The position numbers and the translations under genes are program-made. DNA of 61,388 nt, the filler included, from Porpidia crustulata (taxonomy: Eukaryota): assembly GCA_964255105.1 (NCBI GenBank). It is 14 parts of 14 records of this genome, joined end to end, with 100 filler letters (N's around TTAATTAATTAA, not from the genome) between each part and the next. Parts side by side here need not be neighbours in the genome. Positions count along the whole stretch, not along the records: positions 8,851 to 13,159 come from CAXUWE010002100.1; 13 more parts are not named here. One strand, 5' to 3'. The notes beneath the pieces were generated by a model. It was not told where the DNA came from, did not search any database, and saw nothing but the letters and a program-made list of their open reading frames with translations. Positions 690-13,500 of this stretch are shown in pieces (the stretch's first letter is position 1; each line of letters starts with the position of its first letter).

Positions 690-2993
690 TCAAGCCTTCC
701 CAAAATCCCCCTTTTCTATCGCTGCATTCATCATCTGATTCCCATTCACCAAACCAGTTGTACAGATCAGAATCCTCCTTTTCCCCTCCTCCAGCTTTGC
801 CAAGAACCTCAAGGCCGCAATCTCGGTGAACGTGATACCGCCAAGGAACATGACTATGACCGTCTTCATCGCTCCAGTACCCGCAAGCATATGCCGTGCT
901 TTGGCAGCCTGCTCGTCTCCTTTCTGTATCTTATTGAAGGTCTCGCCTTTGACGCTCTTGAGCGCGTCTTCGAAGCCTTGCCATCCATGGCCGGCAGTGC
1001 CCACGCCATTGGTTGCTGCGGCACCTTTGGTGATGGAGAGAAGGTATTGCTTTTGGAGAACGCACTGTACTAAGCGGACGCTGAGGGGGGCGTATCCACT
1101 GTAGACATATGAAATATCATTCGGGTCTTGTTCGTCGACTTCTTCCACGATGAGTCGAAGTAATTTGCGTAGATAAGCATAGTTGGTCCTTCCGCCATCA
1201 ACAGCAGCGCCAAGAGGGTTGGGAATATACAGGACGTTCGCGGAAGCACGTGTTTGCAGAAGCTGCATCTTTTCCAGGGCATCGAGCGTGAGAAGGTGCT
1301 GGTAACCATACGCGTGAAGGATTTGACGCTTGAAGTTGTCGAGGTCTTTCGGTCGGAGGCCTCCGGCGAGACAAGATTCGAGGCAAAGGAGGCGGAGCAT
1401 GAGCCTTAGTGGAGTGTCTTGCGCAATTAGCTCTTCGATTGTATCATGCTCAGAAGATGGATCGGAGCCAGAATTGAGGTTCTGCTGGACGTCGAGAGTC
1501 CGTCTAAACGTGGTAGATCCAGTATATTTCATAATATCCTCGGCTAGGCCAGTATGGATCTTCAGGCTTTGCTGCTCCGACTGATACCCGGGCAGCTTAT
1601 TCACGAACTCACGGAGCTCCGTTGTGCTTTTCGCGCCGTGTCGGCTTTCATATTCAGTTTGCAAGCGTCTGGCGAACTTATTGAGCATACCGCCCACGAT
1701 CCCAAAATTTTCATTCCGAATTTGATCATACAGTTTGTCGGAAGAATCGAGTTGAATTTTACGCTTAAGGCCTTGCTGTATTGGGGCCTTCCCAGATTGT
1801 GGGGCGACAGGCGCAGTTCCAACGATGGAGGATTCAAGTTCGGCCTGGTTATCGCTGATGCCATATAATTCGTCTATCAGCCCCTCGTACGTGAGTTGTG
1901 TGAGAAGTGGGGTGGCAAAGTCGACTTCTCGATCGATAATGATAAGGCTCTCGATAGATGCACTCGGCATCATTCCAAATCTAGATGAGGTGGCATTTTC
2001 CTCTGCGGAAGCTTCTGACCGCATTCGGAAAAGAAGCTCCATGAGGTGCTTAGCATTATCACCTTTGCCTATGATTCGAGGAAAGAGGCCATATTTTTGT
2101 TGCAAGGGCCAAAGGGCCTGTGCAGCAAGGAATATAGCCGTAGGGTCTTTCCGCTACAGAACGTTAACAGTGTCATTCTTATATGTATCGGTGGATACAC
2201 TGACAAGGTACAGATCGCCAAAAGAATCATCAAGCGCTAAAGAGAGTACGTCCTGTTCGAGTGGTATGAAATGTAGCGGGAACTCCTCGACGCTAATATC
2301 TCCGAGGACTCCAGCTTCCTCCAGTATCTTATTGCAGACCAAGGTACGCCTTGGTACCCAGATCACAGAAAACTCATGCTCGATGGAACTATTTTTCTGT
2401 AGCCGCTTGATCTGTTCTGTTCGTGGATATGTTAGCATGTAATGATGGCGACATGCCTATGGTACGCAAGGAGTACACTATAGATCATGCTAGATTGAAA
2501 GTAATCTAGGGATCAAGACTGATCAAGTAGAGTAGGAATTGATCTACGTAATCTACTTTTTGTCCCGCTGCCAAGTAATGAGCAGATTTGGGATAGGAAT
2601 TGAAAAGCATGCACCGAGAGTAAAAGCGATTTTAGAACCCCAGTTACATACACATACTTACCAGCGATAGCTATACACTGGCTTGCCTTCTCCCCACGAG
2701 CAAGAAAGATTACGCTCTTTTGAGACGCATCGACATTGTCATTTTCCAAGAAGAAGACTTTGTCAACTCCATAATCTTGAAGTGTTGAAAATTTGACAAA
2801 TACTCCTATCGGACCTGCAAGTGCTTTCTCAATGACTAAATTCTTCCTTCCACGGACCTGAGGGAGTTTAGCGTCTGAAACCTTGTGCTTGGTTGTGTTG
2901 ATGAGCCTTACATACGCCTTCTAGCAAGTTCAGTAAATCCTTGCGGGCCTTATCCCGGATGGCGTCTGTGTCGACTCCTGGATGGGGCGCCAT
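690..2993 (-). CDS. VPS33: Vacuolar protein sorting 33 (Sec1/Munc18 family, HOPS/CORVET subunit), multi-exon
   Basis: DKARKDLLNLLEG N-terminus, IWVPRRTLVC, IIIDREVDFATPLLTQLTYEGLIDE, YSGYAPLSVRLVQ and FLGGITFTEIAALRF motifs; GT-AG introns between the ORF pieces. Confidence 0.96.
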
Positions 2994-3168
2994 TTCAGCG
3001 CAATGTACATTGGACTTGATGGTTGGTCGAACTGATGTCGATAGGGCTGTCACCTACAAAGTCTGGGGGCGGGAGCGCTAGACGGCAGCCTTACGGAGAG
3101 CCGCAGTGACGCAGCGCGCTGGCAATATTGAATGACTCAAGAAATCCGCCAATTTATTAATTTTTTGT

Positions 3169-4333
3169 ATGAGGTGCCAGCACAGCACGATTGTACGGCT
3201 TACGCCTTTGATATCTACGAAAACCAGACGACCAATCTATCCCCATCTGTGGAGCACACTCTGCCGCTCCATTGCTACCCAAGCGCATGATATCCTAGAA
3301 GACGCAGACATGGGGAAAGAAAAAATCCAATTTCAGCTCAAGACTCCCAAGGGGACGAAAGATTGTACCTCTTACAGCCAATATCTTATAGTAAAGGCGC
3401 GTGGCTGATGTCTCTAAGGGGAGGGGAAGGATATGGTTGTACGAGACCGTATTTTCAACACCATAACCACTGTCTTTAAACGTCATGGCGCAGTCACCAT
3501 AGACACGCACGTCTCTGTCTTCGTTCGTGTTCCTATTAATAGCTGATGGTAATACTTAGTCCTGTGTTCGAGCTGAAGGAAATCCTCTCTGGCAAATATG
3601 GCGAAGATAGCAAACTCATCTACGATCTTTCCGATCAGGGCGGTGAGCTCTGCTCCTTGCGCTACGACCTCACTGTACCCTTTGCTCGATGGCTCGCTAT
3701 GAACCCCTCAATACAGAACATAAAGCGCTACCACATTGCAAAAGTATACCGAAGAGATCAGCCGGCAATGACGAAAGGGAGGATGAGGGAGTTTTACCAA
3801 TGCGACTTTGATATTGCAGGGAATTACGACACTATGCTTCCGGACGCTGAGATCTTAAGAATTATATGTGAGGTTTTTGGTGGACTGGATTGGGATGGTA
3901 GATTTCTGATAGAGATAAATCATAGAGGAGTGCTAGATGGAATATTCGAAGTTTGCGGTGTCCCAAAAGAGAAAATAAGAACAATCAGTAGCGCAGTCGA
4001 CAAATTAGATAAATTGCCCTGGGAAGAAGTACGAAAAGAGATGACTGAAGAAAAAGGTCTTGACGGTGAGATCGCGGATCGAATATGGACCTTTGTGCAA
4101 AAAAAGGGAGGCAGGGACGTCCTCGACGCCTTGCGAAAAGAAGAAACCGTCACCGCCAACCCATCAATGACCAAAGCCATGGACGAAATGGACCTCCTCT
4201 TCATCTACCTCGAAGCCTTCAACATTCTCGATAAAGTCGAACTCAACCTCTCCCTCGCCCGCGGCCTCGATTACTACACCGGTGTCATCTTCGAAGTCGT
4301 CACCGACGGCTCCGCTCCCCCCTCATCCACGTC
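3169..4333 (+). CDS. HTS1: Histidyl-tRNA synthetase, 5' part (3'-truncated); in-frame ATGs at 3169 and 3310
   Basis: [60 protein letters not shown] and [10 protein letters not shown] class II motifs; two introns. Confidence 0.97.
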
Positions 4334-4433
4334 NNNNNNNNNNNNNNNNNNNNNNNNNNNNNNNNNNNNNNNNNNNNTTAATTAATTAANNNNNNNNNNN
4401 NNNNNNNNNNNNNNNNNNNNNNNNNNNNNNNNN
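4334..4433. other. Artificial contig-joining linker (N44-TTAATTAATTAA-N44, stops in all six frames); first of 13
   Basis: Identical 100-nt linker at 4334, 8751, 13160, 17568, 21973, 26372, 30759, 35142, 39522, 43901, 48275, 52648 and 57021. Contig lengths decrease or tie throughout: 4333, 4317, 4309, 4308, 4305, 4299, 4287, 4283, 4280, 4279, 4274, 4273, 4273, 4268. Confidence 0.99.
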
Positions 4434-4859
4434 GAGTGTCGGCGATTATGGCGGTGTGGGGGGGGTGGCGAGAGGCGATTGCGGTTAGGTTTTCGGAGCT
4501 GGATGGCTCGTGTGTCAGCGTGATCTTGAAGTCTAGGAGGAGGTAATTTGGATTGAACGAAGAGGTACTGACCGGTCCGAGGCCACGATGAAAACTTTGG
4601 GGTTCACAGCTAGGTATTTGCCATTGCCGCAGCCGACATCGAGGCCGACTGAGCCATCGGGTATGTCTTTTAGGAAGCGCTCAACGATTGGCCATGGCTG
4701 CCTCGAGTATTAATGTCCGTTTGTGCATAGTAGTCGTAAAGTGCAAGAATACACCTTGTATCGAGTTGAAGAGAAATGCGCTGCTATTTGATCGTACACT
4801 TGATGCACGTGGGTATCTTCGTATAGCTCGCTGTCATTCTGCGATTTGGCTGGGTCCAT
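4434..4859 (-). CDS. TRM9: tRNA (carboxymethyluridine-34) methyltransferase, 5' part
   Basis: Spliced translation MDPAKSQNDSELYEDTHVHQVYDQIAAHFSSTRYK/PWPIVERFLKDIPDGSVGLDVGCGNGKYL, with SAM motif I and the Trm9/ALKBH8 signature HFSSTRYKPWP. Not in the ORF track. Confidence 0.93.
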
Positions 4860-5579
4860 GTAATGGTGCGAGGGTTGAGTATCTATGCACTATCTTCAGC
4901 GGCACCTTTGCAGTGGAGTTCGCAGAGTCATGGTGCGAAGAGTAGCGAAGATAAAGACACTGAGACCACTCATGAAGAGGAGGAGATGTTTTGTTACTCG
5001 ATGTTCATGTTCTTAAGTTGTTGGTTGATGGAAAGAAATCCTTAGCGTCCCTTGGCGACGGCAGATCGCATCTGGACATCTTTAGATCCGAGCTCGCTGT
5101 TTTTTCCTCCTTCCATACTTCAAAGCCCATATATCTGTCATTCTGTCAAACGCCTGACTTGCGCGCTATCCCGCAGTTTCAAACATTGTCTATTCTGTTG
5201 GCACTTCATCGCAGTCATCTCCCCACCTTCAAAGAATCCCGCTGTGAATCTCGATTGTATTAGGAGTAATGTCTACAGCACTCGAATCTCAACAGAATTT
5301 CAATCCCTCTCTGCAGAGGTTTCTATACATGTTACTCTACAGCACAGATTCCTTTTCATGTGCCTATGATCACTCATCATGATTGCCTGACGGCATTAAT
5401 GTACATTACTGTGTTGGTGTAGAAAGTTGTTATCGTATACACCTTTCTTCTCTGCTATAAGCTATTTTGGGATTTGTCATTGTGCTGGTGCAAGACAACG
5501 AGGCTCTATCGGGGCATTGGTTCAACAAAGAGCTCCAAATTATCGGTGCCACCTAAATCTATTCCCTTATCTTGAAACA

Positions 5580-7154
5580 ATGGCTGCGAAGCCTAGACGT
5601 CCTTCGAGGATGGGATTTGAGAGCCAAGGAAAATGGTCTCAGGATTATACTCCTATGATAGCTTCCCCTGCCGAAACACTTCTGCAAGAAGTCCTCACAA
5701 ATCCAATTGCGTTTGTTCCTGCTACGATTCTTACATTTGAAGACGAAGCAAACATGGCTCCGGTGCTGAGACCTAGGAAGCATTTGAATGAGACTGAAGC
5801 GCAGCAAAGAAATCGAATGAATGTAAGACGACCCCATATTCAAAACGCGTCACGATAGTAACACCATTCTCCAGGTCCGGAACATTTCATCACGCTGGGG
5901 AAGCCAGCAACACGGTCCACACCCATCTCGAGGTTTTGTCAATACAGAGGGCGATCAATGCTACCTCAACAGTATTCTAGTGGCTATGCTTCACGTCCCC
6001 CGATTTGTAAACTGGGTGGATGGACATCAGAATTGTAAAGTTAAGAATTGTGTTGCCTGCGCTCTCCGAATATTGTCCCAGCTGTACTGGAATGCAGCAA
6101 GTATGACTTCTTTGATCAACAAAGCGGTTGCACGAGTACTGCTTATGATAAGACGAAGTGAGATTTTCTCTATCGAATCTTATGTGCCATAAAAGCTTGG
6201 GCTGATAACTTACTGTAGCGGGATGGCATCGTTGGGGACAGCAAGACGCCACAGAAGTTTACGAGCATGTCATAAATGATATGAGTCGGCAACTTCCTAA
6301 GTCAGTGAACGTTCCTTCGTTTTTCTGTTCGTGCTTCTGACATGAACTTTAGTGACCGCGCCATTCTCGAGGCTCTCTTCAAAACGACGATATCAGAAAC
6401 CTTGATCTGCCCAAAGTGTGGCGATCGCTCTACAAGGAACGATATCAAGTACAGAATCCAAATCCCTATCACAGGACCTGACTCTCTGCTCAATTTGATT
6501 CAAGGCGAAGGAGTTTTCGGCACCGCCACTATTCATCAGAGGCGCTGTGATACTTGCAACACTGAAGCACAACGTACAGAGCAATCTAGACAGATACTGA
6601 CAGCGCCAGAGATTATGGTCTTGCAGATATTTCGCTTCGGTGCTGAGAGAGTTGGCAAGCATGGATACAGGGACTTTATTCGTAGAGACGACATAGCTTT
6701 TACCGAGCACCTTGAACTTACACAACTAGTCGAAGGACGAGTCACCTTGAAGTATCGTGTCCTAGCTGTAGTACAGAACAAAGGCGCGACGATACACACC
6801 GGCCATTATATAACAGTAGTCCGGGGACCCAGAGGGGATTGGACAGAAATCGACAACCAGCATGCTATAACAAAAGTAAACCCGAGGCTTGGCAGCGAAC
6901 TTATCTCCTTCAGACACGCTTCACGAGAGGGAGACAAGTCGAGGCCGCAAGATAAGTTCTTGCCATACCTGATCTTTTACCAAAGAGTAGGAGGCGAGGT
7001 AGCCGACGCCCCCATCAGAACAAATGACGAAGGATTCTGGGATGACCGAGAGAAAGACCTTGCAGCAACAAGAAGGAAGAGGGTGCGAATTTCCACTGCT
7101 AGGGTTTCTAAGAAACTCGCCCCGGTCCGTTATGCTCGCAAAGATCGACACTAG
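5580..7154 (+). CDS. Divergent ubiquitin-specific protease (peptidase C19), 4 exons
   Basis: Cys box GFVNTEGDQCYLNSILVAML, QQDATE motif, CPKC...CDTC Zn ribbon, APEIMVLQIFRF, His box GATIHTGHYITVV...WTEIDN and PYLIFYQR. Three GT-AG introns start near 5823, 6158 and 6301. Confidence 0.85.
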
Positions 7155-8740: not shown

Positions 8741-8850
8741 ATATTCTGCGNNNNNNNNNNNNNNNNNNNNNNNNNNNNNNNNNNNNNNNNNNNNTTAATT
8801 AATTAANNNNNNNNNNNNNNNNNNNNNNNNNNNNNNNNNNNNNNNNNNNN

Positions 8851-8924
8851 ATTAGATAGCACCGTGCTTCATAGCCCTAGGCTGCATAAGCACGTAAAAA
8901 TGAAGTAATAAAAATAAAAAAAAA
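8851..8924 (+). mobile_element. Possible 3' end of a non-LTR retroelement (stem-loop plus A-rich tail)
   Basis: CGTGCTT(8863-69)...AGCC-cta-GGCT...AAGCACG(8888-94) followed by TAAAAATGAAGTAATAAAAATAAAAAAAAA, at a contig start. Confidence 0.3.
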
Positions 8925-9244
8925 TTAGAGCTCGGTTTAGTGCCACTGACATCTCCGACTGCCACCATCAGCATCTTGGCCCATAGCTCTCTGAGGTAGC
9001 AACTGAGGTGGAGGCTTTTGTGGTAGTGCATTCGAAAATTGCAATAGTACCTATTTCCTTATCCCAAAATTGGTTGTATTTCTTCCGGGCATCTCAGGAA
9101 TTGGAAACCTTGGTGTCTAGGTCCTTGTCCCATCTGGTGCTGGATAGTTGGCCCCTGACCCACGAGGATATTGGGAAAGAGAAGCTGATTGTGTAGTACT
9201 GAATAATGTTTTTTGACGGAATGTTGTCATTACTTTCACTAGAT

Positions 9245-11855
9245 CTAATCCGGACGGGCACTATTGGAATTTGTATACGAGTAGTCAAGCAACTGAGAGC
9301 TCGAGGAGCACCCTTGCTCCATGTTCAGATTCGTCGTAAGAGAGCTATGCCACGGATTATCTGTCGTATACATGATTTCATCAGAGGGAACAGAAGGCGA
9401 GTGATCAAGCAACTGAGGAATCCGAGATTCCGCTTGCATCAGATCCGTCGTAAGAGAGCCGTGCCCCTGATTATCTGTCGAAGATATGATTTCATCCGAA
9501 TGAGCATTAAAGAGAACAAAATCCGGATGGTCAATCAATTCAGAATCCGAGGACCATACTTGCTCCATGTTGAAATCCGTCATAAGAGAGCCGTGTCCCT
9601 GCTTGTCTGTCGTCGATATGATTTCATCCGAAAAAGCATCAAAGAGAACCAAAGGCAGATCAGTAAGCAATTGAGATTCGGAGGACCACACTTGCTCCAC
9701 GCTCAGATTCGTCGTAAGAGAGCCGTGCTCCTGATAATCCGTCGTAAATACGTATCGACGCCGCTGGATTTCTTTAACCTTTTGCAAGAAAGCGTGGACA
9801 AGTATCTCATGCTGGACTGACAGACTCTGGTGCTGAGAGGATTTAAACACATTATCCGCCGACGTCCTCGGGCTTGTTGGGTTTTGCATTAAATACTGTT
9901 CCCTAAACCATCCTGATGTCTCCCATTCGACTGATTCATTTATAGGCCAGAAAAGTCTTATTACAAATCGTGCGTCTACCTTCACGGTAGATTTGTCAAC
10001 TCCTTCGAAACCCAATATGTAATATCCAGATTGCAGTGGACTGCGAACCGTTGCGTGGTAGAAGGATCTTGTCTCGGGATACCGTGCAAAAACTCGCATT
10101 CCAACGGCATATTGGACCATCTCTTCCCCCACTTCCGGAATAGGGTCCAAATCTTCAGCAGCTTTTGTATAGATTAGTCCAGCCACTCCATTAGAAGGCT
10201 CAAGATCTTGAACTTGATATCTAGACGCCATATTAGCCACGTGAGCATTGATAAAGGATGCTTCGAAATCCATACTGCGTCGGCCTTGCATCACGATTCA
10301 CGCTGATGATAACGCCTTGAATCCATCCTTGATCACTTTCAGAACAATTAAACGCAACTTCCCTACCCGGTACTAGAGACCAATCAACATTGTATATCGA
10401 TAAGTCTTTGACCTGGTTAATAACACGGATGCGGCGATAAAGACGCATCTCGTCATTGGCTTCGTGTTCACGTTTACGTTTCAGTACGCCTGGTCCTAGC
10501 TCCGGTGGGCGAGGTGAAGCTTGTGCAGCTTGGTGTTTCGAGACGGACAGATTGTTGACCGAAGGACTAGACACGGACGGCTCAAATTGATTCTGCTGTA
10601 GAACGTGATGAGAAAAAGCCATTCCACATTGTTGACAGTCGACAATTTCATTTAATGCCACCCTACTGATGGTCGTTGAACATCCTGGACAGGCGCTTTC
10701 ATTGGCCAATTTCGTATGAAACACCATACTCATGTCCACCCTCTGTCCAGGCTGGAAAACCGTGTCCCAGTCTCTGTATAAGTCGATCTGCCGCCTAGAG
10801 CTAGCATCTTGAATCACAAATTCTCCTCTATCAATTTTTTGGGCGCCAGATCCTACTTTGCCAAAATTAATCTTTAACACCGATATGAAAGCCTGTACGT
10901 ATTTCTATCAGCAGGACGGACAAGGAGATGTGGGACCGCGGGATTTTACTTCGGTAGACCTTACGAATTCAAGATGGAAAGGTGCTGTCCTACCCAAAGC
11001 GTCCAACAGGTACACTGGCTGCTGCCGTTGCACCTGACCCGGGACCTGGGTGATTATCTTTTGAATATTGCACACTATCTGGAAAACCTCGAGGTTGATG
11101 CGCCTTGGCCTTGTCAAACCCGATCTCGATGGACAGAATAATAAGTGTCTTACATAATTCTCGCTGTGAATTTTAACAATTCCTTTCCCTGTTGAACACC
11201 GCTGACGGATCGATCAGTATCACATGTTCTAGCAGACTTGTGAGTGATACAGTACCCTGCAACAGCGTCTGCGATTCTGGCGAATTTGCCCATGCATTGA
11301 ATAGATGCGTCTTGAATCATACTTGCCAAGGTCTTCTGAGCTTGATTGTTTTCACGAGAATGAAAAGTTGTAGCGTTCCTATCAGAGTTCATAAGTAAAG
11401 TTGTCAAGTCCAGGTTTGAGATCATACATTTGAACCGTCAACAGCAGAACTTCGATAGCACCGGTATGACCTCGCAAATCGGCTTTGAACCTAGCCAAGT
11501 CCTCTTTTTTACAAAGCGCCCATTTGACTTTCATCCATCCACTTTTGATCCGAAAACCAGATAGATCTTGACCAAGATGTGGTTGGTAGTTCCTGATCTT
11601 CTTCCAAAAATCGTCAATTGTTTTGTAGCACTGCGAGGCCGCTTGCTGCAGAGCAATCTGTTCGTTAATTTGCGATTCGTCAAGCTCTATCCGTTTGACT
11701 CGGAAAAGGGCCTGTTCAAGGGTGTAGAGCTCGCGAACGAGCTCGCGGTACTCAAGACTGGCATCTCCAGATTCACGCAGAGTATCAATCACTGTGCTGA
11801 CGAGCTTGAGAGCCGCAATGAAGTCACCAGCAGAGAACCCGAAGCCGACCGACAT
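9245..11855 (-). CDS. About 781-aa multidomain protein: fungal STAND/NLR-type N-terminal helical domain + ubiquitin-like domain + CxxC Zn motif + SGF29-like tandem Tudor + C-terminal repeats
   Basis: Five GT-AG introns (11379-11427, 11202-11255, 11104-11153, 10893-10949, 10221-10275) give one 2346-nt frame. Motifs: MSVGFGFSAGDFIAAL...WMKVKWALCKKEDL; QQPVYLLDALGRTAPFHLEF...WDTVFQPGQRVDMSMVF; CPGC..CQQC; GREVAF..WIQG..YQVQDLEP..VFARYPETRSFYHA..LGFEG..VDARFVI. Confidence 0.75.
9278..9745 (-). repeat. Coding tandem repeat, 4 diverged units of about 132 nt (44 aa)
   Basis: Units start at 9745, 9613, 9481 and 9367. Consensus TTDxQxHGSLTTxLxxEQVWSSxSQLLDxxxxVLFxAxSDEIIS. Unit 3 is shortened to 38 aa and unit 4 is partial. 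Confidence 0.92.
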
Positions 11856-12546
11856 GACACTGTTGACCTCCTGATATTATACCGCGAGGAAATAAGACCG
11901 CAGGCTACAATTAATATGAGATAACATTAGATGAAAGATTTGCAGAATTCCGACGATGTTTGAATGAGAAATGGATCAATGGATCAGCGAAACCTCCAGA
12001 TTCGCCATTTCGATTGACAAGAATCGAGAGATAGGCATGCAATGAGCGTGATAGCATGCTGCATGCTCAGCCTCGGTGGCGACACATATTTGAGGCTTCG
12101 AACTGGGCTTAGTGGTAGAGTAGAGTATACCGTAGGGCTGATAAATATATCTGAAATCGCCGACCATTTACCTCTTTCCAGTTGTTGGTACAAGGTAGGC
12201 AGTAACTCGCTCGAGCCACAAGTCTACATTTCAACAAAAGATTCTTGGTTAAAAGGGAAAATCGATATGTAGTTCTTCGCGCAGTCTGTTGATGATCTAG
12301 AGCATGCGAGGGAGCATTCCGTCCTCTCTTCGCCCAGCGGAGTTTATATTGGAAAAGTCCGCTTAAATCCGTTATGCTGGACAACCTCATCCATGCTCCA
12401 TCTGACTCATGAGACAAGCTGGGTCCTCAGACATGACCACTGGTACCTACATAAGACAGCGAGGTTTCCGCTGTCTTCAAGAAATATTCCAGTGATCGCA
12501 AAATTTTCGAGATACAGGTTTGGATTCAAATCATCCCATAGTCATC

Positions 12547-13159
12547 ATGGAGTACACCCGGTGCGTTGAGCTTATTCCTTAGGTCTTTCGGAGTCTAATG
12601 ATCAATAGCCTGGGCAAGTCTGGCCTCAAGGTCTCCAAGGTCATTCTTGGGGCAATGAGTTATGGAAGTCCTGAATGGCAAGGCTGGGTCCTAGACGAAG
12701 AAAAGTCTCTACCGCTCCTAGAGCACGCCTACAAAGTGGGTATAAATACCTGGGATACCGCCGATGTATACAGTAACGGTGTCTCCGAAGAAATCATAGG
12801 CAAAGCCCTCAAGAAGTTTAACATTCCCCGCTCCAAGATCGTCCTTCTCAGCAAGTGCTTCTTCGGCGTTGAATATGGCTCCCAGCCACCTCTTAGCAAA
12901 GTTGCTGTCAACGATGGGGAATTTGTCAATCGCGCAGGACTTTCAAGAAAACACATTTTCGAAGCTGTAGATGCGAGTGTGGAGAGATTGGGGACATATA
13001 TCGACGTGTTGCAAATCCATCGCTTGGACCGTGAAACCCCCAGGGAAGAGATCATGAAGGCATTGAACGATGTAGTGAATAGTGGAAAAGTCCGATACAT
13101 CGGCGCAAGCTCGGTACCACCCCCCCGCCAAACCCGCGCAGCAGAAAACCGAACCTAAC
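12547..13159 (+). CDS. Aldo-keto reductase (aryl-alcohol dehydrogenase-like), 5' part
   Basis: MEYTR/LGKSGLKVSKVILGAMSYG, WDTADVYSNGVSEEIIGKAL, LSRKHIFEAVDASVERLGTYIDVLQIHRLD and GKVRYIGASS. Confidence 0.95.
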
Positions 13160-13500
13160 NNNNNNNNNNNNNNNNNNNNNNNNNNNNNNNNNNNNNNNNN
13201 NNNTTAATTAATTAANNNNNNNNNNNNNNNNNNNNNNNNNNNNNNNNNNNNNNNNNNNNGTGTGGAAATGGATGTTGCTACTGTGCTTGCTACCTCTAAA
13301 TTATGTAGTATAGTGCCCCAACGCCATTAAATATTTATCTCCAGCGTGCATCACCCCTAGTCAATGAATGAAGCCACCGGTGAACCCTGACCAAGCACCC
13401 CACAGTTGATGGATGTTGAGTGGAAGTCCATCAGCCGAGACATTGTCCGAAGATTCGAGGACGATAGCGTAATGACGGAGGAGCAGTTCCGGGAGCCGAT

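Follow-up and report, generated by a model that had tools for sequence, protein, structure and literature searches.

The window analyzed here is a 61,388-nucleotide (nt) stretch of DNA from Porpidia crustulata (GenBank assembly GCA_964255105.1). It carries a minus-strand gene (11855..9245) whose predicted product joins an N-terminal HeLo-like (PigL_N) domain, a ubiquitin-like domain (ULD) and a zinc ribbon to a tandem Tudor domain of the SGF29 type. SGF29 is the reader of histone H3 di- or trimethylated on lysine 4 (H3K4me2/3) in the SAGA and ATAC complexes. As judged by sequence comparison, this six-exon gene of a filamentous ascomycete is genuine. We assign a probability of roughly 55% to the fuller reading, in which an SGF29-derived Tudor pair sits on a HeLo-like/ULD scaffold in a real gene and methyl-lysine reading gates or localizes the protein. 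The Tudor pair would most likely bind di- or trimethyl-lysine, on the N-terminus of H3 or on another methylated protein, and such binding would either bring the HeLo-like/ULD module to the mark or switch the module on. The output could be an attack on membranes that ends in cell death, or alternatively a role in the nucleus.

Joining the exons by coordinate gave six exons and five GT..AG introns, with 781 codons and no internal stop between an ATG at 11855 and a TAG at 9247-9245 (Table 1). The five canonical introns of 49-57 nt and the single frame of 781 amino acids (aa) proposed in the initial annotation were reproduced exactly; the five open reading frame (ORF) pieces that it counted do join into one frame, but the gene has six exons. 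Splice junctions were judged by three sequence comparisons: a family alignment, an SGF29 profile and a second locus, L002, described below. The 18 residues that the 54-nt intron would encode are missing in 16 of 16 aligned family members, and the other three N-terminal junctions are uninterrupted in all 16. A protein of Xylographa bjoerkii (P0001, MMC18_001646) fixes the 57-nt intron (HLEFIRSHDAFISVLK); this protein and other homologs are continuous over that position (HLEF[VI]RS..AF[IL]SVLK).

Removal of the fifth intron (CA/../A, slashes marking splice sites) produces ..RPTQ/YQVQDLEP, and unspliced read-through meets a stop at 10235-10233. A profile made from the C-terminal 150 residues of each of 32 canonical SGF29 proteins aligned with residues 423-545 of the spliced protein, ungapped at the Tudor junction, and scored 104.1 bits for the spliced protein versus 83.1 bits for the unspliced ORF. 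The earlier proposal that splicing at 10221-10275 rebuilds this segment inside the Tudor pair was thus borne out; the intron is of phase 2.

A Pfam scan of the separate exons detected the PigL_N/HeLo-like family PF17111 at 33.5 bits (cut-off 27.2, E 3.5e-8, profile positions 16-135 of 209) and, in the second part of the ubiquitin-like region, ULD_2 (PF22893) at 34.6 bits (cut-off 24.5, profile positions 26-84). The protein begins with a near-invariant motif, MSVGFGFSAGDF (11855-11808), in which columns M1, F5, G6, F7, S8, G10, D11 and F12 are near-invariant among 72 family members. The zinc ribbon, CPGC..CQQCG, matched Zn_ribbon_LysW weakly (16.8 bits). No exon had a Pfam match to NACHT, NB-ARC, WD40, ANK or TPR at E up to 1. 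Together with the SGF29_Tudor match below, all three expected families of the spliced protein (PF17111, PF22893 and PF07039) scored above cut-off, so the HeLo-like-type N-terminus, the ubiquitin-like domain and the lack of a NACHT or NB-ARC domain all stand as annotated.

To see the fold of the scaffold, we used an AlphaFold model of a family member, P0082, made from a 72-sequence alignment (mean predicted local distance difference test score, pLDDT, 78.3). Residues 9-219 were modeled as helical and residues 230-309 as a beta-grasp, the latter a block with pLDDT 89-97. Foldseek matched this beta-grasp to ubiquitin and ISG15 (E 0.019-0.1, probability at least 0.99, template modeling score normalized to the target 0.56-0.67), and VIA-align matched it to a UBX domain (Z 7.5). 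In this model, then, the ULD_2 region has a ubiquitin-like beta-grasp fold. Foldseek returned no match for the helical N-terminal part. By VIA-align, the helices resembled plant NLR coiled-coil domains such as that of Rx (Rx-CC; Z 9.0, root-mean-square deviation (rmsd) 3.3, 106 aligned) and AtMLKL3 (Z 7.3), values within helical-bundle noise, as Z below about 13 is uninformative for helical bundles and unrelated bundles reach Z 10.2.

The C-terminal half of the conserved region is clearly related to SGF29. The Tudor-2 exon matched SGF29_Tudor (PF07039) at 47.9 bits (cut-off 23.8) over profile positions 35-130 of 132; yeast Sgf29 (3MP1, E 3.7e-4) was the only solved structure matched by sequence, and the neighbors of the exon in the ESM Atlas were SGF29 clusters throughout. 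In a representative protein library the exon found 79 proteins, one of them the unspliced ORF of the present gene itself. The best annotated matches were Pezizomycotina proteins named 'SAGA HAT/Core module component', from Aspergillus, Onygenales, Candelina and Pycnora. The description of this region as an SGF29-like Tudor reader is therefore well founded, on the above-cut-off PF07039 match, the SAGA proteins among the best matches and an intron held in common with canonical SGF29. Signature changes set the domain apart, with VDAR[FY]V in place of VDRRFV and Q in place of R ahead of YxVQD; the present Tudor pair is 37-42% identical to canonical fungal Tudors, compared with a median of 55% between canonical pairs. 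Two other library proteins place an SGF29-like Tudor half in a noncanonical setting: in P0069 (430 aa) it precedes what by eye appears to be a C-terminal ING-type PHD finger, and in P0045 (311 aa) it precedes a KIX_2 domain.

The residues predicted to read the methyl mark are in place. Human SGF29 holds K4me2/3 in an aromatic cage formed by Y238, Y245 and F264, according to the part of the published account that we drew on (PMC4589357). The corresponding positions of the Tudor-2 exon, Y47, Y54 and F71, are invariant in 16 sequences (the present protein, P0003 and 14 canonical proteins), and a profile search of solved structures aligned them with the human motifs ALYPQTTCFY and VLFED. Because the aromatic cage is kept, the Tudor pair most likely still binds di- or trimethyl-lysine.

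The present protein is nonetheless not an SGF29 ortholog, since its N-terminal 410 aa have no SGF29-type match. It shares the PF07039 tandem Tudor, the cage and the phase-2 intron with canonical SGF29 (yeast 3MP1, human 3ME9; intron in the canonical gene L001), but about 410 aa of HeLo-like, ULD and zinc-ribbon sequence stand where SGF29 has its own N-terminal part. The SGF29-type N-terminal region, which anchors the protein in SAGA, is thus absent, with PigL_N, ULD_2 and the zinc ribbon in its stead. PigL_N or ULD_2 was found in none of 22 Pfam-scanned Tudor-matching proteins, a BLASTP search of the N-terminal 410 aa against the 78 other Tudor-matching proteins gave no match at E up to 1, and a word-index search for long proteins containing the Tudor exon gave none at E 1e-3 or better.

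The same fusion was found in other loci. When one Tudor sequence alone was used to scan metagenomes, 112 pattern matches resulted, none of them confirmed; a second scan, for which six divergent Tudor halves were aligned, identified three loci, L001, L002 and L003. L001 carries a canonical SGF29 gene whose product shares 70% identity with the Candelina protein. L002, on a contig of 194,940 bp, is colinear by tblastn with the spliced present protein through the end of the Tudor pair. Its frame of 566 codons is clean, and introns of 52, 55, 49, 58 and 53 nt occupy all five positions found in the present gene. Its exons matched PigL_N at 32.9 bits, ULD_2 at 32.2 bits and SGF29_Tudor at 74.8 bits. 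The present protein and L002 are identical at 157 of 200 positions in the HeLo-like domain, 76 of 100 in the ULD and 48 of 110 in the zinc ribbon and linker. L003 (5872-8291) is also colinear, but its exon 1 and Tudor 1 contain frameshifts and in-frame stops, which mark it as a decayed copy (pseudogene) or else a contig of poor quality. It also has additional sequence between zinc ribbon and basic patch. Library fragments P0020 and P0066 proved to be the Tudor-2 exons of L002 and L003, and four more (P0003, P0015, P0070 and P0079), known from the Tudor fragment only, carry VDAR[FY]V or related changes. The architecture thus recurs, intact in L002 and apparently decayed in L003.

The Tudor intron points to the source of the domain. 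In L001 the junction reads ..AAA CG/GTATGT..TTTCAG/G TAC GAA.., in phase 2 and directly ahead of the Y of YEVQD; in the present gene it reads CA/GTATGG..TCTAG/A TAT and in L002 CA/GTAAGG..CCCAG/A TAC. Position and phase are identical in all three, and both fused genes encode Q where the canonical gene encodes R. Among the 78 Tudor matches, 21 are short ORF fragments in which homology starts at the intron point, a pattern that a common intron of fungal SGF29 genes would produce. Retention of the intron at its canonical position and phase argues that the 3' part of SGF29 was captured as genomic DNA. The Tudor pair was thus probably copied by genomic duplication of that 3' part, without retroposition. 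In a quick Tudor tree, seven fused-type rows fell together with a support of 96 by the Shimodaira-Hasegawa-like approximate likelihood ratio test; the approximately unbiased test does not reject a grouping of all seven (p 0.375), which 68% of 200 bootstrap trees contained.

Beyond the Tudor pair, the present protein has a tail with about four copies of a 44-aa repeat rich in acidic residues, Ser and Thr (DNA period 132 nt, 9439-9750, by Tandem Repeats Finder). No Pfam match was found in the tail, including its 44-aa repeats. L002 lacks the tail and ends 10 aa after the Tudor pair, which suggests that the present copy lost an L002-type stop and that the tail is a recent stop-loss extension. Repeats 1 and 2 differ at 11, 7 and 11 sites by codon position, with 5 synonymous and 17 non-synonymous codons; lacking an excess at third positions, the tail shows no sign of purifying selection, and it may be translated.

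These features raise the alternative that the gene is a by-product, a lineage-restricted chimera drifting toward loss, with a Tudor pair that has no specific function. The frameshifts and in-frame stops of L003, the long branch of the present Tudor and the neutral-like tail would all fit. However, the frame is complete in two independent contigs (781 and 566 codons), each with ten canonical splice sites, and both the cage and the core Tudor residues are kept. We regard a mere by-product as very unlikely.

To place the scaffold, we searched with the N-terminal 142 aa and found 86 proteins, 85 of which come from Pezizomycotina and are 45-71% identical; the 86th and weakest match, P0165 (39% identity), is an NB-ARC protein. 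ULD_2 (PF22893) was present in 76 of the 86, EVH1_PP4R3 (PF22972) in 5 and Myb in 1; NB-ARC occurred in just the one, and SGF29_Tudor (PF07039) in none. In a Pfam scan of 24 longer members, EVH1_PP4R3 was above cut-off in two and bZIP below cut-off in two, Myb was above cut-off in one and below it in one, and Tudor was found in none. Members with modules of other kinds include P0083, P0097, P0106, P0136, P0138, P0160, P0112, P0094 and P0120. Shared by the family as a whole are the zinc ribbon, the basic KRKR patch and, directly ahead of the variable C-terminus, the motif LFRRVRI. P0001 and P0081-P0164 thus share the ULD, zinc ribbon, KRKR and LFRRVRI with the present protein and differ from it in their C-termini, which are absent, unassigned, EVH1_PP4R3, Myb or bZIP-like. 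By these comparisons, residues 1 to about 410 of the predicted protein are those of a typical member of a widespread, unstudied Pezizomycotina family with PigL_N and ULD_2, on which our literature search found no paper. The pattern suggests that the family is a scaffold with exchangeable C-terminal modules of nuclear type. The N-terminus had been called NLR-type (NLR, receptor related to those built on a nucleotide-binding oligomerization domain, NOD); this holds at the level of the superfamily but not for the close relatives, 76 of 86 of which carry ULD_2 and one of 86 NB-ARC.

P0001 (434 aa) departs from the present and L002 proteins right after LFRRVRI, with residues 384-434 differing. Neither Pfam (E up to 10) nor the SGF29 profile gave an SGF29 match in its tail. 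The public gene model of P0001 may be cut short where its relatives enter the Tudor pair.

The make-up of the family bears directly on where the protein would act. Both the basic patch and the modules of nuclear type in its relatives speak for a nuclear site of action, and membership of the HeLo-like family with a near-invariant hydrophobic N-terminus speaks for a membrane output. One alternative is a chromatin-tethered nuclear regulator without a role in cell death, whose Tudor pair would target the scaffold to H3K4me2/3 chromatin, just as Myb, bZIP-like and EVH1_PP4R3 modules would target its relatives. The conservation of KRKR and LFRRVRI throughout the family is consistent with this, as are the derivation of the relatives' C-terminal modules from families of nuclear proteins, the retained cage and an N-terminal domain that is 65-84% identical across classes, unlike fast-evolving immune genes. 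Set against these, the N-terminus scores above the Pfam threshold of the HeLo-like family, it opens with a near-invariant hydrophobic, glycine-rich segment of the kind found in membrane-targeting domains, and the nuclear site is a prediction from the basic patch. On balance we consider a purely nuclear regulator rather unlikely.

Methyl-gated control of the HeLo-like module, the reading we prefer, has a parallel in the het-v allorecognition locus of Podospora anserina. There, HET-Vb (Pa_5_12710), 771 aa long, combines an MLKL/HeLo-like domain at its N-terminus with a downstream Tudor domain; together with the SET methyltransferase HET-Va it determines V/V1 incompatibility, and the logic proposed in the portion of that report available to us is that a methyl mark is deposited, the Tudor domain reads it and the HeLo-type domain is activated (PMC9262711). 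The mechanism suggested here would run in parallel with that proposal, the Tudor pair reading and the MLKL/HeLo domain executing. According to the same portion of the report, HET-Vb is close to the present protein in length (771 versus 781 aa), has a HeLo/MLKL N-terminus, a downstream Tudor and no NOD, and likewise occurs in a limited set of filamentous fungi (PMC9262711). The available text bases the HET-Vb domains on low-level HHpred matches and mentions no ubiquitin-like domain or SGF29-type Tudor, and it places the Tudor at about 535-675, versus 412-548 here (PMC9262711). HET-Vb also has a linked SET partner, HET-Va, whereas none was found among the ORFs scanned beside L002 or on the contig of the present gene (8851-13159); a partner could lie elsewhere in the genome. 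The present protein thus resembles HET-Vb, by analogy with its published description in the part consulted and not by sequence alignment.

The broad design of a HeLo-type domain plus a Tudor is therefore already in print (PMC9262711, in the portion used here). The initial annotation had taken the architecture to be undescribed, and this holds in one respect: none of the 86 N-terminal homologs and none of the 78 other Tudor proteins joins these Pfam families. In another it does not, HET-Vb having been published. What is new is the descent of the Tudor from SGF29, a scaffold that includes a ubiquitin-like domain and a zinc ribbon, and kinship with a large family whose other members end in different modules.

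The section of the survey that we used counts PF17111 (formerly Helo_like_N) both as an N-terminal domain of fungal NLRs and as a domain of NLR-linked, HeLo-like executioner proteins (PMC9815663). HET-S, HELLP and the N-termini of fungal NLRs share with the present protein PF17111 and a hydrophobic N-terminal segment; unlike HET-S and HELLP, the present protein has no C-terminal amyloid motif that we could see, and no NLR was found among the ORFs scanned beside the L002 copy. A further alternative, put forward in the initial annotation, is an integrated decoy or sensor, in which the Tudor pair would mimic SGF29 so as to detect a SAGA-directed factor of a pathogen or mycovirus, and the HeLo-like module would kill without a NOD. 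A conserved scaffold whose modules can be swapped, every one of them similar to some part of a conserved nuclear regulator, would fit, and so would a Tudor that evolves faster than the scaffold (38% versus 78% identity between the present protein and L002) and a patchy distribution with one copy decayed. Relaxed constraint, however, explains the fast evolution of the Tudor equally well, there is no NACHT or NB-ARC domain for oligomerization and no NLR among the ORFs scanned near L002, and no effector targeting SGF29 turned up in this analysis. We give a decoy only a slight chance. A broader generalization would be that the PigL_N/HeLo-like and ubiquitin-like scaffold is a NOD-independent executioner or signaling platform of filamentous ascomycetes with swappable sensors captured from conserved nuclear regulators, the SGF29 Tudor in this case and the EVH1 domain of PP4R3, Myb or bZIP in others. 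The Tudor version and HET-Vb would then form a methyl-mark-gated class of cell-death or allorecognition proteins, in which a HeLo-type domain is controlled by whether a lysine-methyl mark is read or not; we offer this as speculation and think it improbable.

Several observations weigh against the fuller reading. The gene model and its splicing are predictions from sequence comparison. The Tudor pair is divergent, scoring 104 bits where canonical full-length domains score 168-228, and is identical to that of L002 at just 51 of 134 or 47 of 120 positions, depending on the alignment. The position of human D266 is occupied by G, as it likewise is in canonical fungal SGF29. A careful Tudor tree placed six of the seven fused-type rows together with support 51/80 and the L003 fragment elsewhere, so the phylogeny groups these Tudors weakly, in a way compatible with a single capture without establishing it. 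The end branch leading to the present Tudor is also long, at 1.3 changes per column, making its placement in the tree unsure. The apparent decay of L003 means that the gene would be dispensable in some lineages. As to output, the KRKR patch and the Myb, bZIP and PP4R3-type modules fit membrane attack poorly, and the match of the P0082 helices to the MLKL N-terminal domain (6ux8, Z 7.7, rmsd 3.8, 117 aligned) lies within helical-bundle noise. Finally, no SET or NLR gene was found within 8 kb of the L002 gene in the 40 scanned of 50 ORFs of at least 75 aa, the 10 unscanned ones overlapping a polymerase gamma gene.

Were it to hold, the reading would provide a second, independently recognizable design of HeLo-type domain plus Tudor, hitherto known only from Podospora het-v, a system well defined by genetics whose mechanism is still puzzling. 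As the Tudor here has a clear SGF29 pedigree and a predictable, H3K4me2/3-like class of ligand, the coupling of methyl reading to a HeLo domain becomes directly testable. The gene also highlights a large Pezizomycotina family, so far unstudied, that combines HeLo-like and ubiquitin-like domains with a zinc ribbon and exchanges C-terminal modules between lineages, and it is a clean example of exon-level capture with the intron retained.

Table 1. Coordinates of the gene, its parts and the contig linkers, counted along the window.
Feature	Position	Strand	Remarks
Whole coding region	9245..11855	-	six exons, 781 codons; L002 has the same exon structure
Exon 1	11428..11855	-	HeLo-like / PigL_N domain; Pfam residues 14-140 (11816-11436)
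Intron 1	11379..11427	-	49 nt, GTATGA..TGATAG; homologs continuous (LLLTVQM); L002 intron at the equal place
Exon 2	11256..11378	-	helical region after the HeLo-like domain
Intron 2	11202..11255	-	54 nt, in frame, GTACTG..CCGTCAG; 55-nt counterpart in L002
Exon 3	11154..11201	-	ends ..GVQQGKELLKFTARIM
Intron 3	11104..11153	-	50 nt, GTAAGA..GCCAAG
Exon 4	10950..11103	-	first part of ULD_2; PF22893 profile positions 2-22, 15.5 bits
Intron 4	10893..10949	-	57 nt, GTAAAA..GTACAG, within the ubiquitin-like domain; 58-nt counterpart in L002
Exon 5	10276..10892	-	remaining ULD_2 (to ~10719), zinc ribbon, linker, basic patch, family motif, Tudor 1
Four-Cys zinc ribbon CPGC..CQQCG	10691-10623	-	exon 5
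Basic patch KRKRE	10484-10467	-	exon 5
Family motif MRLYRRIRV	10448-10422	-	exon 5
Tudor 1	10376-10299	-	exon 5, by profile alignment
Intron 5	10221..10275	-	55 nt, phase 2, GTATGG..GCTAAT..CTAG, separates Tudor 1 from Tudor 2
Exon 6, first part	9956..10220	-	Tudor 2 with aromatic cage; PF07039
Cage residues	Y in FARYPE 10090-10073; Y in RSFYHA 10069-10052; F in LGFEGV 10015-9998	-	by alignment
Exon 6, second part	9248..9955	-	lineage-specific C-terminal tail, ~233 aa
Linkers	4334-4433, 8751-8850, 13160-13259, onward every ~4.4 kb		

Some 14 contigs of nearly equal length (about 4.3 kb) make up the window, joined by N44-TTAATTAATTAA-N44 linkers, so gene order across the linkers is artificial. 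Apart from the present gene, its contig (8851-13159) carries nothing beyond the beginning of an aldo-keto reductase (12583-13158). Matches to Sec1, HisRS, UCH, TAF6, Forkhead and TruB were rejected as neighbors because they are located on other contigs. In a tblastn search of the window with three canonical SGF29 proteins, the sole match was the Tudor exon of the present gene.

At L002, the downstream neighbor is a 523-aa open frame without a Pfam match (9683-11254, minus strand), and the upstream neighbor is a mitochondrial DNA polymerase gamma gene (DNApol_Exo, DNA_pol_A; 2544-5810, plus strand). In the present gene, an antisense open frame of 205 aa (9203-9820, plus strand) overlies the tail repeats; it is most simply a by-product of a 132-nt repeat that lacks stops in several frames.

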